The notes: generated by a model from the sequence alone, not told the origin. A stretch of 64,000 nucleotides of DNA from a virus (IMGVR_UViG_3300014697_000001:1-64000), one strand, 5' to 3'; counted from the stretch's first letter, positions 24,398 through 60,604 are shown. Numbers and translations: made by a program.

Positions 24398-24420
24398 TTT
24401 TTGACCCTACATTATCGAGT
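24398..24420 (+). promoter_or_regulatory. Putative early promoter (TACATTATCG)
   Basis: Motif recurs at 47, 46143, 58388 and 59091, each time at the head of a + strand unit. Confidence 0.6.
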
Positions 24421-54123: not shown

Positions 54124-55122
54124 TTAGACGTTATAGTGGAAGTAGAGCTTACCCGCACCCCATGGGCAATCGTCTGGCAGTGTCAGAACAAGTACCCGGT
54201 TAAAGAACTCGGAGTTTGCCTCAGGTACTGCGGCATGCGGCAGTATGTACCGGTTGATGCGTGCGCCCGTCATCCCCAGTTCCTTGACGAGATAACCGGT
54301 TGTTGGATCGCTACCATCGTACGCGACCCCGTTGGTAGAAGCGGAGCGACCGACGTAGCGTGTAGCGGTGATCCGCGGGCCATTTCTGGGAATGACCATC
54401 GGGAAGACTTCGTTGATCAGTTGTGTGTGTAATAATGATACGTTGGTGCCAGCCCACTGGCCCAGGAAGGAAGCGCTCGTCACCCAGCTACTGTCAAGTA
54501 TGGCCGACTTATTGGAATAATCGGTGTTAAAGCCGTCTGGGGTGATCCAGTACTTGCGCATCGGATCGTCCTGGTCGTTACCGCCCGGATATAGACGTCC
54601 GCCCATCACATCCACTGGCAGCAACGATTCCAGTGTTCGTTCGCCTACGAACCATTTGGCCTGAATGGTTCCGATAAAAACCAAGTTACTGCTCGTGGGA
54701 GAAAGGATAAACGCGTCTCCCCGGATACCGTTATAGCCCGTCAACCACCCGTTATTCCACTCACCCACTGTGAACGGTATGCCGTACTTTTCAGAGTACA
54801 GTGGCAGTAAGGTATCGATCTGGATCAGGTTGCCGCTCGCCTGACCGCCATTCGCCACCCACTTCTGTACTTCCAGCGTCATGTTGCGGAAAAGAAAGCC
54901 CACATTCAACCGCCGGTAAGTCACTACAATGTTGCCAATGTAGTTGGTGTTCGGTTTGGCGATCACCCGGATCTTGGTGTTGTGGCCATTGCCTGGATCG
55001 GTGATCGTCTCAGGCAGGGTGAAATCAAAATCAGTGTCATTGATCGGGAAGGGGAGGTTGGGATTCCCTTCGTTAATCAGATCGACCAGCATCTGCTTGG
55101 CCGTTTTGGTATAGATAGCCAT
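54124..55122 (-). CDS. Virion array protein
   Basis: LVDLINEGN..YRRLNV..FNRVL..YFHYN. Confidence 0.75.
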   Translation of the reverse strand: MAIYTKTAKQMLVDLINEGNPNLPFPINDTDFDFTLPETITDPGNGHNTKIRVIAKPNTNYIGNIVVTYRRLNVGFLFRNMTLEVQKWVANGGQASGNLIQIDTLLPLYSEKYGIPFTVGEWNNGWLTGYNGIRGDAFILSPTSSNLVFIGTIQAKWFVGERTLESLLPVDVMGGRLYPGGNDQDDPMRKYWITPDGFNTDYSNKSAILDSSWVTSASFLGQWAGTNVSLLHTQLINEVFPMVIPRNGPRITATRYVGRSASTNGVAYDGSDPTTGYLVKELGMTGARINRYILPHAAVPEANSEFFNRVLVLTLPDDCPWGAGKLYFHYNV

Positions 55123-55157: not shown

Positions 55158-55961
55158 TTACCAGTCCAGATCGTAATGGAAATACAGCGGTCCCATTACC
55201 CCACCGGTGGCGTACGTCTGGATCATCACACGTTGGAACTTCGGATTGGCGTTAGCGATCTCGCTCGTCGCCCGATCCACCACGGAGTTATTATTCCATG
55301 ACGGCAGTCCGGCTTTGGCACCGATTTCAAGTACGCGGCTGAAGTTCGCCCAGCGGCCTGTTTTCGGGTCAATCTGAAGATCTTTCTTATAGCCGGTAAA
55401 GTCGAAGTTATACGTGGACATGTACCCATACCGACGGTTCGATCCTAGAATCGTGAGGTCGGTCGGATGATCAAGCAGAGGCAATAACCGAACCAGAACA
55501 ACGGTTTCCAGCAGAGGGTTACCGTACGTGGTCTCGACCACCACCCGACCCATCCAGTTCCACGAGTTGTCCTTGACCTGGATCTCAATCAATTGAGTGG
55601 TTTCAAGGGTATCGAACTCAGGGATTACCGGTTCCTGGATATCGACTGGCTCGAGGTACAAGCCGTACTTGTTATTCAGGTGACTTAGCAGCCAGTCTCG
55701 GTTGATGGTTCCGTTGGTCCGGGCTTTCGCCGCGACTCCGTCACCACTAAACAAGGCAGAAAGGTCATGCCGATCAAAGAGGATCTCTACCTCGCCCTTG
55801 TATCCCTTCCCTACGATGCCTGAGAGCACCACACCGGTATTTCTCACTCCACCGCTGGCCTTAGCCATGGGTGTTGCCATCTCGACGTTATCGAGCCTTA
55901 CAGGGATGCGTAGATCGTTCTGCTCATTGACCAGTTGCAGAACTTTAAGACGTCCGTCCAT
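55158..55961 (-). CDS. Virion array protein
   Basis: LQLVNEQN..YKG..DRHDL..YFHYD. Confidence 0.75.
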   Translation of the reverse strand: MDGRLKVLQLVNEQNDLRIPVRLDNVEMATPMAKASGGVRNTGVVLSGIVGKGYKGEVEILFDRHDLSALFSGDGVAAKARTNGTINRDWLLSHLNNKYGLYLEPVDIQEPVIPEFDTLETTQLIEIQVKDNSWNWMGRVVVETTYGNPLLETVVLVRLLPLLDHPTDLTILGSNRRYGYMSTYNFDFTGYKKDLQIDPKTGRWANFSRVLEIGAKAGLPSWNNNSVVDRATSEIANANPKFQRVMIQTYATGGVMGPLYFHYDLDW

Positions 55962-55974
55962 CAGATCACCTCAC

Positions 55975-56820
55975 TTAAGCTTGAGCGAACGGGTCGACCG
56001 GATCACTGAAGTGGATGATAAGATCCCCACTGATTCCGAATGCATCGTTGTGGTCAAGACCCACAATCAGTCCGTAATCGTAGTTGTCGTTGAACAGACC
56101 GTTCTCTGCAGTAGGACCTGCAAACTTGATGATTGCACCCCCCAGACTGAACTGACTGTAACCGGTATGGGCCCAAGTGTCGCCCGTGATGTCGGTCAGG
56201 ATCGTCGCCAGCTCTACCGGGATGGCCTGACCTGCGACCAGGGTCTTCAGATAAGCGGCGTGCTCGGAAAAATCACGCCAGTAGCTGTAGAACTGCGCAA
56301 AGGGCAGGGTGGCGTACTGAGTCGGGTATTGGAACCCAGGTAGCGCCGTGTTGACCAGGTAGTTCTCCAGTGGGATGTCACCCTGTTTGACAGAAACATC
56401 CACTGTCCCGATCCAGCCCAGACTGGTTTCCTCAGCCGTCAATGTGACGGTCTTATAGGTCACCATGTCCACCGCATCTACCAGCACGATATCGGTCGGC
56501 TCGAGGTTCAGACCGAAACGCTCATTGATGTATGGCAGGATATCGTGAGAGTTGCTGAACTCAGGTGCCTGAATGCTCAGCGTTACAAGCTTTGGAAGGT
56601 CAGCCAGGCTCAACCGGTTATAGAAGATCTGTACCGAACCCTGATAAGGGGCGACGTTGTTGTTGGCGGTGACGGTGACGTAGGTGTTTTGCCCTGGATT
56701 GGTTCCGGTGTCGTTGACCGTCGGATTCTCAAAGTCATAATCTTCAGGACTCAGCTGAATCCCGTTGTTTTGGGCAATCACACCCAGCAGGGTTGTTACT
56801 GGGTCCTTATAAAGAGACAT
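55975..56820 (-). CDS. Virion array protein
   Basis: YQGSVQIFYNRL..SLGWIG..IIHF. Confidence 0.75.
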   Translation of the reverse strand: MSLYKDPVTTLLGVIAQNNGIQLSPEDYDFENPTVNDTGTNPGQNTYVTVTANNNVAPYQGSVQIFYNRLSLADLPKLVTLSIQAPEFSNSHDILPYINERFGLNLEPTDIVLVDAVDMVTYKTVTLTAEETSLGWIGTVDVSVKQGDIPLENYLVNTALPGFQYPTQYATLPFAQFYSYWRDFSEHAAYLKTLVAGQAIPVELATILTDITGDTWAHTGYSQFSLGGAIIKFAGPTAENGLFNDNYDYGLIVGLDHNDAFGISGDLIIHFSDPVDPFAQA

Positions 56821-56834
56821 GAGTAAAACTCCGA

Positions 56835-57674
56835 TTAGATGTTGTAATGAAAGTACGCGGTACCAGAAAAGCCGTTACTTCGAATGCCAGTCTGTACAGC
56901 AACGTGCGAGAAGTTACGGTTAGCATCTGGTAGAGACTTGGTCTCGTAGACCTTGACCGAATCGGTGGAGGTCGACGATGCGTCAATGGCTGGCCAGTCG
57001 GCAATGTTGTACAGCTCTTGCAGTTTGGCTCGAAGCCCAGCATGGTCTGTCCAGTTTCCACGGTAATAGGCCCCGTTAGGACTGACTCTTAACTGAGGGC
57101 GAATAAGGGTAAAGTCCAACCCCCACGTGGTCAACCCAGCGCTCCGGTACCCGTCCAACACTGGATCTGGATGGGTAAGCTTGGCCACTGCACGCGTATG
57201 GATGACATCTGTTAACATCAACTGCCTGCGATTGAACAGGACTGTGGTGTATCCTTTATAGGCAATCGAACCCGGTTTTGCTTCCAGTTCAATCAGAACC
57301 TGCTCACCGGTACCGAGAAGCTTGAGGTCAATGTTGACCAGATCGTCTTCAGTCAGGGTGATGCCCAAGGCTTTACTGATTTCAGGCAACAGCCTGTGCA
57401 GAGATGACTGTCCTAGGGCACTGAACTCGGCGCGGTAATTGCCACCAAACAGGACGCCCAGATCAAGGCGGTTGTAGTAAACTTTGACCTGCCCCTTGTA
57501 ATCTTCGCCAGCCACACCTCGAACATTCAACTGAGTGTTGGCATTACCGAATCCCAGTAGATCACTTGGTTTGCCCAAAATGAGGTTAGTGGGCGTGAAT
57601 TCGATTTCAGGGGTGTTGGTCTGGTTGAGGAGATCCCTCAATTGCTGTTCGGGACGTTGTTGATATTGCTGCAT
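56835..57674 (-). CDS. Virion array protein
   Basis: YKGQVKVYYNRLDL..YFHYN. Confidence 0.75.
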   Translation of the reverse strand: MQQYQQRPEQQLRDLLNQTNTPEIEFTPTNLILGKPSDLLGFGNANTQLNVRGVAGEDYKGQVKVYYNRLDLGVLFGGNYRAEFSALGQSSLHRLLPEISKALGITLTEDDLVNIDLKLLGTGEQVLIELEAKPGSIAYKGYTTVLFNRRQLMLTDVIHTRAVAKLTHPDPVLDGYRSAGLTTWGLDFTLIRPQLRVSPNGAYYRGNWTDHAGLRAKLQELYNIADWPAIDASSTSTDSVKVYETKSLPDANRNFSHVAVQTGIRSNGFSGTAYFHYNI

Positions 57675-57744
57675 GATAGACTCACCTTAAGAGGAAGCTA
57701 TAACCGCTGGGAAAGGAAGACCTAACCCAGCGGTAAGCAGATGC

Positions 57745-58254
57745 TTACATCGTCAGGGTCAGACCATCCAGTACAGGCTTGGTGACGGCAACTGCCAGAT
57801 CCACGTCAGCGGCCTGGATGCTGAGAACGACTTGACCACGGTAGGCATAGGAGCCAGCAGCAGCGATCATGGTCCACTGCTGAGGGGTGCTGGTCAGCTC
57901 CGCCGGCATGGTCAGGTCGTTACGGATGTCATCCAGTTGCAGGTTGGAGCCGTAGAAGGCATTGAAACCATTCAGGATGTTCTGAAGGGTGATGTCGCCT
58001 TCGACCTGGATGGCCGATGGGACAGCGTCTTCGAACGCCTGAAGTGGAATACGGTTGTACAACAGGGTGGTGGTACCCTTGTACCCCTTACCGGGGATAC
58101 CTTCGATTACCAGTTCGGTATCGCGTTCTGGTGCCTCACCCGGAGCAGCAGTCGGCACACCGAAGGAAACACTGTCGAATGTGAGGTTGAGTAGGTTTTC
58201 ATCATTGATCAGGGCCAGGACCTGATCTTTTGCGAGCATCGATACGTTATACAT
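57745..58254 (-). CDS. Virion array protein (N-domain only)
   Basis: LALINDEN..YKGTTTLLYNRI..SYAYRG. Confidence 0.75.
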   Translation of the reverse strand: MYNVSMLAKDQVLALINDENLLNLTFDSVSFGVPTAAPGEAPERDTELVIEGIPGKGYKGTTTLLYNRIPLQAFEDAVPSAIQVEGDITLQNILNGFNAFYGSNLQLDDIRNDLTMPAELTSTPQQWTMIAAAGSYAYRGQVVLSIQAADVDLAVAVTKPVLDGLTLTM

Positions 58255-58377: not shown

Positions 58378-58400
58378 ATTATAGCCCTACATTGTAGAGG
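58378..58400 (+). promoter_or_regulatory. Putative early promoter (ATTATAGCCCTACATTGTAG)
   Basis: Recurrent motif. Confidence 0.6.
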
Positions 58401-58580
58401 TGATGAACACAGCAATTTCAATCCCATTATATGTACAGGTACTTTCGAGTACACGTAAGGGGGTGATCCAGCCTAGTTCCTTCCCGGATCAGTGAGCCTT
58501 GTCGGGAGACATTGCATCTGTTCCAACGGCGCCTGTGCATCAGACCACATCGAAGGGCAATTCCCTCGATGTGGTCTTTT
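58400..58580 (+). ncRNA. Candidate small RNA (or 30-aa sORF at 58403-58495) with an 18-nt element complementary to the 16S rRNA 3' end
   Basis: Bounded by the promoter motif and a terminator; TAAGGGGGTGATCCAGCC at 58456-58473. Confidence 0.5.
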
Positions 58581-58586
58581 ATGCCG
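58543..58586 (+). terminator. hairpin + TTTTATGCCG
   Basis: GACCACATCGA-AGGGCAATTCCC-TCGATGTGGTC-TTTT. Confidence 0.85.
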
Positions 58587-58626
58587 CCTGCCAATCATTT
58601 GACCATTGCCTCAAGGAGGTAACACC

Positions 58627-59010
58627 ATGCGTAATGTTGGTATCAACTTGATCCTGGCTGACTCGATGTCAGCTGTGGATGCCATCGCCGTAGAACTTGA
58701 TATTGAGGAAGTCTACCCGGTAGAGGAGCTTATCCAGACCTACCGTACCAGTCCTCATGCCACCTATTTCGCCCTGGGTGATTCGGTTCCAGAGCTGGAG
58801 CAACTGGCTACCTATTTTACTGTCCGACGTGGAGTCATTCGGGTAGACGGGAAGGATAAATTTCTCGGCTCCAATGTCGACTGGATGACTAAACTGCTGG
58901 TCAAGACTTCTAAAACAGCCGCGGCCGGGAAAGTTCAGACCATCCGAAGCTTCACAGTCCCTGAAGAGAAAGACGACCCGTTCGAAGAATTGGGATATGC
59001 CCGACGTTAA
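58627..59010 (+). CDS. hypothetical protein
   Basis: ATG 58627 after a near-perfect SD AAGGAGGT. Confidence 0.75.
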   Translation: MRNVGINLILADSMSAVDAIAVELDIEEVYPVEELIQTYRTSPHATYFALGDSVPELEQLATYFTVRRGVIRVDGKDKFLGSNVDWMTKLLVKTSKTAAAGKVQTIRSFTVPEEKDDPFEELGYARR

Positions 59011-59015
59011 ATTAT

Positions 59016-59065
59016 AGAGGCCGGGGACATCCCCGGCCTCTATGGTCTCTCTTTTTTTTTCTTTT
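59016..59065 (+). terminator. hairpin + TATG + T-tract
   Basis: AGAGGCCGGGGA...TCCCCGGCCTCT. Confidence 0.75.
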
Positions 59066-59080
59066 CCCGTAATCAAAAAC

Positions 59081-59717: not shown

Positions 59718-60128
59718 GTGGCGTTAAACCGCCTGAATCTTTCCGCACCACAGTCCCGATCCCTAAAGAAGGTTGATATGTCCGACACCCCGAACGCAGT
59801 CATCAAGTGGCTGCATTCGCCCTCAGGACGCAGTAAGCGCTCAGGTATCGTGAATCAGGGGTGTTATATCCTTGAACACGATGCCACCGGGCGCTTTTAC
59901 ATGGGTGAGTCTACCCACGTCAGTCAGGAGGTCGATAAACAGCTAGGCCTCCTGACAGTCAGCAAACACCCCTGTAAGCTCCTAAATGGCCTGTACGAGC
60001 GAGATAATGCCATCCGAGTACACGAGTACCCGTGCGCCTCCAAACGCGATCGGAAGAAGCTTCTCAAAGAACAGATCGACAATCAGGTATACGACTACCT
60101 CTGCCTCAATCCAGGTGTTATTAAATGA
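59718..60128 (+). CDS. GIY-YIG nuclease-domain protein
   Basis: GCYILEHDATGRFYMGES, plus a C-terminal CLN. Confidence 0.65.
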   Translation: MALNRLNLSAPQSRSLKKVDMSDTPNAVIKWLHSPSGRSKRSGIVNQGCYILEHDATGRFYMGESTHVSQEVDKQLGLLTVSKHPCKLLNGLYERDNAIRVHEYPCASKRDRKKLLKEQIDNQVYDYLCLNPGVIK

Positions 60129-60604
60129 TCCTACCCCCGACTGCTGAAATTGCATTCCGTTACATCCAATCCACCCGCGACTACATCATGGAGACCGCCC
60201 GCGCCTGTCACATGCAGGTTTTTGCTACACCTGAGTTCTTGGAACAAAATCCTCACCTTACCCCTTACGTATTCACCACCCACGTGGGCGACGATGTAGT
60301 TATCTTGAACATCAGTCCCATGGCCATTCGTGACTTCCGGCTGGAAAACACCAACATCATCTTCAAGGCACGCTACCAGGGCGTTGAATACGTCCATACC
60401 GTCAGCCTGCACGGGGTGATTGGTGTATATGACCCTGCCATGCCGCAGATCATTCATACCTGCATCCCAACGACCATCCTCGTGTCCGAAACCGCGATGC
60501 ACATGGTACATGGTGTAGCCATTGAGGTGGTGGATGGTGCACCTACAGTCGAAGTCAGGAAAGAAGAACCCACCCGCCCCTCCTTCCTTACTGTGGTGAA
60601 ATGA
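60125..60604 (+). CDS. sspB: SspB-like ClpXP adaptor (copy 2) with an intact ClpX-binding tail
   Basis: VILNISPMAIRDFRLENTNIIFKARYQG matches the SspB core; ends RPSFLTVVK (cf. E. coli RPALRVVK). Confidence 0.8.
   Translation: MILPPTAEIAFRYIQSTRDYIMETARACHMQVFATPEFLEQNPHLTPYVFTTHVGDDVVILNISPMAIRDFRLENTNIIFKARYQGVEYVHTVSLHGVIGVYDPAMPQIIHTCIPTTILVSETAMHMVHGVAIEVVDGAPTVEVRKEEPTRPSFLTVVK

Follow-up and report, generated by a model that had tools for sequence, protein, structure and literature searches.

Gene layout and architecture of the RNA

The window, that is, the whole 64,000-nt stretch of viral DNA that was analyzed, comes from a genome (G000) that encodes homologues of chimallin and of the non-virion RNA polymerase (RNAP), and we therefore regard it as a relative of the nucleus-forming chimalliviruses. 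A gene of about 148 nt for a small RNA (sRNA) runs from 58433 to about 58580 on the plus strand. It lies in a divergent intergenic region of 373 nt, flanked by a minus-strand DUF7941 gene (57745-58254) and a plus-strand gene starting at 58627. The predicted fold is a three-way junction, composed of the helices P1 and P2 and a P4/P5 arm with a GNRA loop, followed by an intrinsic terminator (Table 1). The strand that joins P2 to P4 holds a stretch complementary to the 3' end of 16S rRNA.

On the minus strand, the genes adjoining the sRNA are four tandem DUF7941 (PF25613) paralogues (55158-58254), one of which is truncated to 169 aa. The region 59718-60604, on the other side, holds a GIY-YIG-type gene with 61% identity to a gene of Pseudomonas phage pPa_SNUABM_DT01 (hereafter DT01) that bears the annotation putative homing endonuclease, and then a gene for a weakly SspB-like protein (Pfam E 0.004), the DT01 homologue of which is annotated as a ClpXP specificity-enhancing factor.

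Table 1. Elements of the sRNA gene and its immediate flanks (window coordinates)
Feature	Position	Strand	Remarks
Promoter-like motif, early type, CCCTACATTGTAGAGG	58385-58400	+	optional
Start region ATTATATG	58426-58433	+	TATG at 58430-58433; inferred transcription start G58433
P1, 5' strand GUACAGG	58433-58439	+	partner 58532-58538
P2 hairpin UACU-UUCG-AGUA	58440-58451	+	longer in phiKZ-like copies
Joining strand, P2 to P4	58452-58485	+	holds the motif
16S-complementary stretch	58456-58473	+	invariant core AGGRGGUGAUCCA at 58458-58470
CCC, doubtful weak P3 partner of the G run	58483-58485	+	
P4-P5 arm	58486-58524	+	P4 and P5 with an internal loop between them
P4 GGAUCAG/CUGUUCC	58486-58492 with 58518-58524	+	
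P5 UGUC-GGGA-GACA	58500-58511	+	GNRA tetraloop 58504-58507
Junction J4/1 AACGGCG	58525-58531	+	consensus AC-GG-Y
P1, 3' strand CCUGUGC	58532-58538	+	partner 58433-58439
Intrinsic terminator	58542-58580	+	12-bp stem with 3-bp extension, then UUUU
Start cassette of the next unit, TATGCCGCCTG	58580-58590	+	outside the sRNA; serves the gene at 58627-59010

Distribution, covariation and transcription of the RNA family

A blastn search with the intergenic spacer matched one diverged phage, DT01, at 75% identity; in the 5 kb around the element, there was just one other match to DT01 at the DNA level, of about 200 nt. Two covariance models were built, R1 from three copies and R2 from 10 sequences. R1 identified a further copy in a 266-kb UViG, and exactly one copy per genome in all six complete DT01-like genomes that we reached via their DNA polymerase. 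R2 identified copies in phiKZ (NC_004629, 212850-213009, between PHIKZ203 and PHIKZ204), PhiPA3 and Noxifer, together with weaker matches in RVTF4, 201phi2-1 and Phabio. The copies in PA1C and phiHQ were found by blastn and then positioned by R2. Over its full length, the window copy reaches 197 bits under R1 and 146 bits under R2, and it has the features of the family, namely P1, P2, the P4/P5 arm with its GNRA-type loop, the motif strand and the terminator. The copy in Psa21 (NC_062581, about 221,490-221,740; L085:1430-1680) was found via the 12-mer GGRGGTGATCCA and has the same architecture by eye. It had been missed in two covariance-model searches (one with strict filters, one of five records), and model-based absences elsewhere therefore need caution.

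The 12-mer is present once within the element in each of seven named Pseudomonas chimalliviruses scanned for it (phiKZ, PhiPA3, 201phi2-1, Phabio, Noxifer, RVTF4 and Psa21), and RVTF4 has one extra copy within coding sequence; an 11-mer is present once each in PA1C and phiHQ. The motif was found neither in EL nor in the 12 non-Pseudomonas chimalliviruses scanned, which are phages of Klebsiella/Serratia, Xanthomonas, Erwinia, Ralstonia, Vibrio, Pectobacterium and Salmonella. Likewise, R2 returned nothing in seven carrier-free genomes (six non-Pseudomonas phages and EL; one of the scans was run under strict filters). Exact two-block pattern scans of viral, metagenome and genome contigs gave, beyond near-identical relatives, chance matches only, which fell within coding DNA rich in GC or within an unrelated phage. 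In a quick polymerase tree with a poorly resolved deep node between carriers and non-carriers, the carriers form two fully supported clades, so their distribution may reflect plain descent.

The phiKZ copy matches 57 records by blastn, all of them Pseudomonas phages, and none of these records has any annotation of the region. In Rfam 15, the window copy has chance-level matches only, all with E above 1 over the element and located on the terminator, and the copies in phiKZ, Noxifer, Psa21 and 201phi2-1 have no match at E up to 0.1. Altogether, these copies constitute a new and well-supported family of structured RNAs, which is found in neither Rfam nor any deposited annotation that we examined. 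The best sub-threshold Rfam match nearby, to McaS at 59006-59080 (26.9 bits versus a gathering score of 42), was rejected as a second sRNA; it corresponds to the terminator hairpin of the gene at 58627-59010.

In the alignment of 16 sequences, which was fitted to the model and hence is biased towards the structure, 94.7% of the cells are paired and changes on both sides occur at 32 of the 39 pairs. None of 500 shuffles matched the observed pairing and covariation, and the slid controls were 32-41% paired. Two-sided changes affect five of the seven pairs of P1, in which all cells are paired in the 16 sequences, all four pairs of P2, six of the seven pairs of P4, both inner GC pairs, all four pairs of P5, and 11 of the 12 pairs of the terminator. 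RNAalifold, run independently on the 10-sequence set, gave the same helices. The exchanges in P1 are exemplified by GUACAGG/CCUGUAC, by AGCAAGG/CCUUGCU in phiKZ and by AGACAAGG/CCUUGUCU in RVTF4; in the DT01-like copies, GTACAGGC on the 5' side pairs with GCCTGTAC on the 3' side. The loop of P5 is GGGA, GUGA or GAGA in most copies. Conservation of J4/1 is seen in the DT01-like and phiKZ-like copies and weakens in Noxifer, RVTF4 and Phabio. The terminator, in which 58542-58553 pairs with 58566-58577 ahead of the UUUU, had already been called from the window alone and is upheld by its covariation across relatives. The G-U pairs (five at a single terminator pair) and the U tract are compatible with the plus strand only, which assigns the RNA to that strand. 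From these comparisons, we regard the sRNA gene and its fold as near certain to be real.

A further helix, P3 (GGG/CCC), was rejected: it shows no covariation, its changes being one-sided only, its CCC strand reads CUU in PA1C and CAU in phiHQ, and in the latter the helix is broken. With P3 set aside, the motif most likely occupies the joining strand of the three-way junction in single-stranded form. Two helices by which the motif had been suggested to hide itself (TGATCC with GGATCA and AAGG with CCTT) are not retained in the relatives.

The description of the element in the first-pass annotation as a stand-alone, non-coding transcript is borne out by its own start motif, a covarying terminator and non-homologous neighbours. 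The locus thus has the properties of a separate sRNA gene with a putative transcription start. The first gene downstream in the window is a homologue of the third downstream gene of DT01, where two extra genes intervene, and it is unrelated to both the first downstream gene of DT01 and gp204 of phiKZ; in PA1C, the next gene lies on the opposite strand. With such variable downstream genes, and with no conserved alternative pairing in the alignment, the features expected of a riboswitch or attenuator were not found. Nor did the copies share a reading frame with a Shine-Dalgarno (SD) sequence and start codon. The ORF of 30-31 codons at 58400/58403-58495, from which a short or stalling peptide had been proposed, is specific to the window: its frame is not conserved, and what lies 5' of the TATG in DT01 is the final part of another gene. 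Indels of 1-2 nt directly after the motif distinguish close relatives. The related claim that no start codon lies at SD spacing was correct and extends to the whole family, since none of the 17 sequences has ATG, GTG or TTG 4-12 nt downstream of the motif.

TATG or TATAG stands directly before P1 in each copy and is itself preceded by about 10 conserved bases. In all DT01-like copies and in Noxifer, the sequence immediately 5' of P1 is CCTATTGTATG or ATTATATG, and in the phiKZ-like copies TATAG directly precedes P1. In phiKZ, TATG is the consensus of the late promoters of the non-virion RNAP, with transcription starting at the G (PMC4666361). An AAAnTAC-like box was also noticed by eye about 20-25 nt upstream, near -24, in phiKZ, PhiPA3, Psa21 and one UViG; it resembles the middle-promoter motif of phiKZ named in the same study (PMC4666361).

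The promoter proposed in the first-pass annotation lies farther upstream, at 58385, and is one of a family of motifs of the form (T-rich)CAA-CCCTACATnnTAnnGG-TGA, which is found upstream of genes at least eight times in the window's genome. These sites are at 24405, 46140, 58385 and 59088 of the window and at 119351, 195319, 198739 and 247495 of the genome, and they are a candidate early (virion RNAP) promoter of the clade. The same hairpin as at 58385 is also present upstream of the copy on L054. The proposal therefore stands in part: the motif does recur before genes, and it is absent from many homologues of the sRNA, among them DT01, L027 and L055, for which reason we treat it as optional. 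The associated idea of early expression was not retained, as the universally conserved element at P1 is the TATG/TATAG of the phiKZ non-virion RNAP type. Given that the early-looking motif belongs to another family and is missing from many copies, we infer that the sRNA is transcribed in the middle or late phase.

At the other end of the gene, the terminator is followed by TATGCCGCCT, an instance of a genome-wide intergenic cassette of a hairpin plus TATGCCGYCT, from which the next gene obtains a start of its own. Most intergenic regions (e.g., 59011-59050 and 58566-58590) contain such a GC-rich hairpin followed by (T)TATGCCGYCT, often readable on both strands. The arrangement resembles a terminator merged with a TATG start cassette of the phiKZ type, in which the initially transcribed GCCGYCU is conserved.

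Complementarity to the 3' end of 16S rRNA

The 16S-complementary stretch at 58456-58473 of the plus strand reads TAAGGGGGTGATCCAGCC, or UAAGGGGGUGAUCCAGCC in RNA form. In a Pseudomonas genome with a full Rfam SSU match (L059), the 3' end of 16S rRNA reads ...CUGCGGCUGGAUCACCUCCUUA, and the two sequences form 18 contiguous pairs, one of them G-U. Since this end is the one on which the first-pass annotation had relied, its Pseudomonas reference was right, and its count of 17 identities to the 16S complement in 18 positions, the sole difference giving a G-U pair, was reproduced on the 16S sequence of L059. Outside the 18 nt, any likeness to the antisense of rDNA is weak by eye.

The chance of 18 pairs in 18 positions (Watson-Crick or G-U, at the base composition of the phage) is 8.7e-9 per site, which corresponds to 1e-3 expected sites per window and 4e-3 per 250-kb genome. 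The runner-up site in the real 250-kb phage genome has 14 pairs with the 16S end, and the longest run across 20 shuffles of the genome was 16. The computed energy of the duplex between the motif and 16S rRNA is -35 to -38 kcal/mol, compared with -15 kcal/mol for the strong SD of the next gene, and opening the motif costs a computed 3.6-8.9 kcal/mol. In single-sequence folds, the motif is partly paired, but the partners are not conserved.

Conservation of the GATCCAGC extension in relatives, which the first-pass annotation had named among the tests of its proposal, was strongly borne out. The core AGGRGGUGAUCCA is identical in 17 sequences (the 16 aligned ones and Psa21) from about 11 lineages, while elsewhere in the RNA divergence has brought the model scores down to 17-59 bits. 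Its one variable position, R, lies opposite U1537, with which either base can pair; Noxifer, RVTF4, Phabio and Psa21 have A there, and most copies have G. Beside the core, almost all substitutions retain the pairing with 16S rRNA. The base opposite U1541 is A or G in every lineage but Noxifer, and the one opposite G1526 is C or U in every lineage but Phabio. By manual count, contiguous pairing with 16S nucleotides 1524-1542 amounts to 14-19 in every lineage. For comparison, pairing of an arbitrarily chosen 13-mer with this part of 16S rRNA has a probability of 1.1e-6. This pattern of variation makes it very likely that selection acts on the 16S-complementary sequence.

We also searched for other partners of the motif. 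In a partial Pseudomonas genome, the perfect targets are the three 16S ends only, and the search of the phage genome for a complementary target of the sRNA gave nothing convincing. A perfect 12-nt complement of the motif lies at 54539-54550, within the mRNA of the minus-strand gene 54124-55122; it is in the coding region, about 570 nt from the start, and was rejected as a target at chance level, the number expected by chance being about 0.15. A 12-mer within the upstream gene of another relative was rejected on the same ground of chance level. Outside the window, the exact 14-mer GGGGGTGATCCAGC is present at 209421-209434 of the genome (L011:3422-3435), inside the gene for a family-B DNA polymerase (codons M-G-V-I-Q). 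As a second site it was also rejected: it is retained in DT01, and in another relative synonymous changes destroy it, which marks it as a coding coincidence.

Possible functions and relation to known RNAs

The data on conservation and complementarity lead us to a working interpretation, in which the conserved phage RNA may grip host ribosomes. That the sRNA acts in trans, forming base pairs with the anti-SD tail of 16S rRNA and with the base of its helix 45, seems to us slightly better than an even bet. According to this scheme, the phage non-virion RNAP would transcribe the sRNA from TATG/TATAG in the middle or late phase, and the largely unpaired conserved strand between two helices would present an extended SD-like sequence, AGGRGGUGAUCCAG. 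This sequence would pair with the anti-SD tail (1530-1542) of the host 16S 3' end and, beyond it, with the 3' strand of helix 45 (1525-1529), so that the sRNA would occupy 30S subunits. The most likely consequence would be a competitive blockade or re-programming of SD-dependent initiation, with the sRNA serving as a mimic or decoy for a ribosome binding site (RBS); less likely, ribosome binding would stabilize or localize the sRNA itself. The strongest form of the proposal, a dedicated RBS mimic that invades helix 45 and captures or re-programs 30S subunits in trans, and that would be the first natural RNA known to target the anti-SD, is offered tentatively, as a possibility that we consider doubtful.

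Several facts complicate this scheme. SD sequences are used by the phage itself (a 4-nt SD core is found for at least 46% of its genes, versus a background of 16%), and a global block of the anti-SD would therefore also affect phage translation. In the mature 30S subunit, nucleotides 1525-1529 of 16S rRNA are paired in helix 45, so full pairing of the sRNA would need strand invasion. Transcription of chimalliviruses takes place inside the phage nucleus, which is free of ribosomes, and the sRNA would consequently need export. The anti-SD is, to our knowledge, universal, yet the motif was absent from EL and the 12 non-Pseudomonas chimalliviruses scanned, which counts against the 16S reading unless plain descent accounts for it.

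This last point favors the alternative that we take most seriously, in which the invariant stretch of a structured RNA binds a protein or forms a tertiary or catalytic core, and the complementarity to 16S rRNA is incidental. A complex fold with a three-way junction, a GNRA loop and conserved junction nucleotides would suit a scaffold, ribonucleoprotein or ribozyme-like molecule; ChmC, a nucleus-associated protein of chimalliviruses, is reported to bind phage RNAs; and a restriction to Pseudomonas phages would be easier to understand if the universal anti-SD were not the target. Against it stand the chance of about 1e-6 that an arbitrary invariant 13-mer would be complementary and the kinds of variation in and around the motif, which preserve the 16S pairing with few lineage exceptions; for a ribozyme in particular, there is also no Rfam match to a ribozyme or any other family. 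We judge this alternative unlikely. Improbable, in our view, is a 5' leader that controls read-through into the downstream operon in cis, as a riboswitch or attenuator, with the short RNA arising as a by-product of premature termination. The element does head a plus-strand module, from 58627 through a ligase gene, that is syntenic with DT01, and many ncRNA candidates of phiKZ and 201phi2-1 are products of premature termination derived from 5'UTRs. However, the downstream genes are unrelated in the window, DT01 and phiKZ, with two extra genes in DT01 and an opposite orientation in PA1C, the TATGCCG cassette straight after the terminator provides the next gene's own start, and no alternative antiterminator pairing is conserved.

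We give an equally small chance to the idea that the SD-like stretch binds ribosomes just to stabilize or localize the RNA, in the manner of STAB-SD, and that the real function resides elsewhere in the molecule. It draws on the same complementarity data as the preferred reading, and the copies do contain an SD-like sequence that no start codon follows at initiation spacing. A stabilizer would hardly need 14-19 nt of complementarity, though; the short J4/1 is the one other evident conserved single-stranded seed, and no mRNA target was found in the phage genome. The cis arrangement of STAB-SD is also not reproduced, as the strong terminator and the new start cassette separate the sRNA from the next gene. 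The remaining options, a translated micro-ORF or ribosome-stalling peptide on the one hand and a functional minus strand that mimics the 16S 3' end on the other, appear very remote. The window does contain the 30-31-codon ORF at 58400/58403-58495, and its minus strand would read GCUGGAUCACCCCCUUA; but the ORF is not conserved, frame-breaking indels separate close relatives and no start codon is suitably spaced, and on the minus strand the G-U pairs would turn into A-C mismatches and the U tract would be out of place.

The trans-acting interpretation bears on the question of how nucleus-forming jumbo phages seize host translation. If true, it would introduce a new kind of host-takeover factor, a natural RBS mimic. 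It can be tested directly, since phiKZ, PhiPA3 and 201phi2-1 are tractable models for which transcriptome and gradient methods have been published. Were the 16S idea to fail, a new structured RNA family, absent from Rfam and the examined annotations, would remain. In the takeover of translation by jumbo phages, we know only of proteins that have been implicated so far, such as the ribosome binders of phiKZ, and our search found no literature linking a jumbo-phage RNA to 16S rRNA or the anti-SD.

Among known RNAs, the closest by origin are the ncRNA candidates of phiKZ and 201phi2-1, which are likewise short terminated transcripts from intergenic regions or 5'UTRs of the same phage group. Those named in the texts of the published accounts (the PHIKZ298/297 intergenic RNA, the p40 5'UTR, an RNA upstream of gp182 known as sRNA005, and 17 that are derived from 5'UTRs) are all at other loci; the supplementary lists may include the present locus as an uncharacterized entry. 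Identity with the published gp182-leader sRNA of phiKZ was rejected, as the locus is different. In mode of action, the archaeal valine tRNA fragment, which is reported to compete with mRNA on the 30S subunit (PMC5711459, PMC11009984), is similar: it too is a small ncRNA for which binding to the small subunit and competition with mRNA at initiation have been proposed. It differs in being a host-derived processing product that acts near the decoding site without anti-SD pairing, whereas the sRNA has a dedicated phage gene and complementarity to the anti-SD.

The STAB-SD of the cryIIIA leader of Bacillus thuringiensis, an SD-like sequence without a start codon reportedly described by Agaisse and Lereclus in 1996, resembles the sRNA motif in that it is thought to pair with 16S rRNA without initiating translation. 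STAB-SD works in cis from within an mRNA leader, has a length of about 9 nt and is found in Gram-positive bacteria. The sRNA, in contrast, is separate, terminated and phage-encoded, and carries 14-19 nt of complementarity in a conserved three-way-junction scaffold.

In its proposed logic, the sRNA is comparable to 6S RNA, which sequesters RNA polymerase by imitating an open promoter, and to CsrB, RsmY and RsmZ, the RBS-like GGA motifs of which sequester CsrA/RsmA: a structured ncRNA would mimic a normal ligand, here the RBS, and thereby occupy a central machine. It has no sequence or structural similarity to these RNAs and no Rfam match, and the GGA-in-loop motifs of the Rsm RNAs are not conserved in it. 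Its proposed target is also of a different kind, being not a protein but 16S rRNA, which would be recognized by base pairing. Should the RBS-mimic reading be true, the phage RNA would represent a translational counterpart of 6S RNA.
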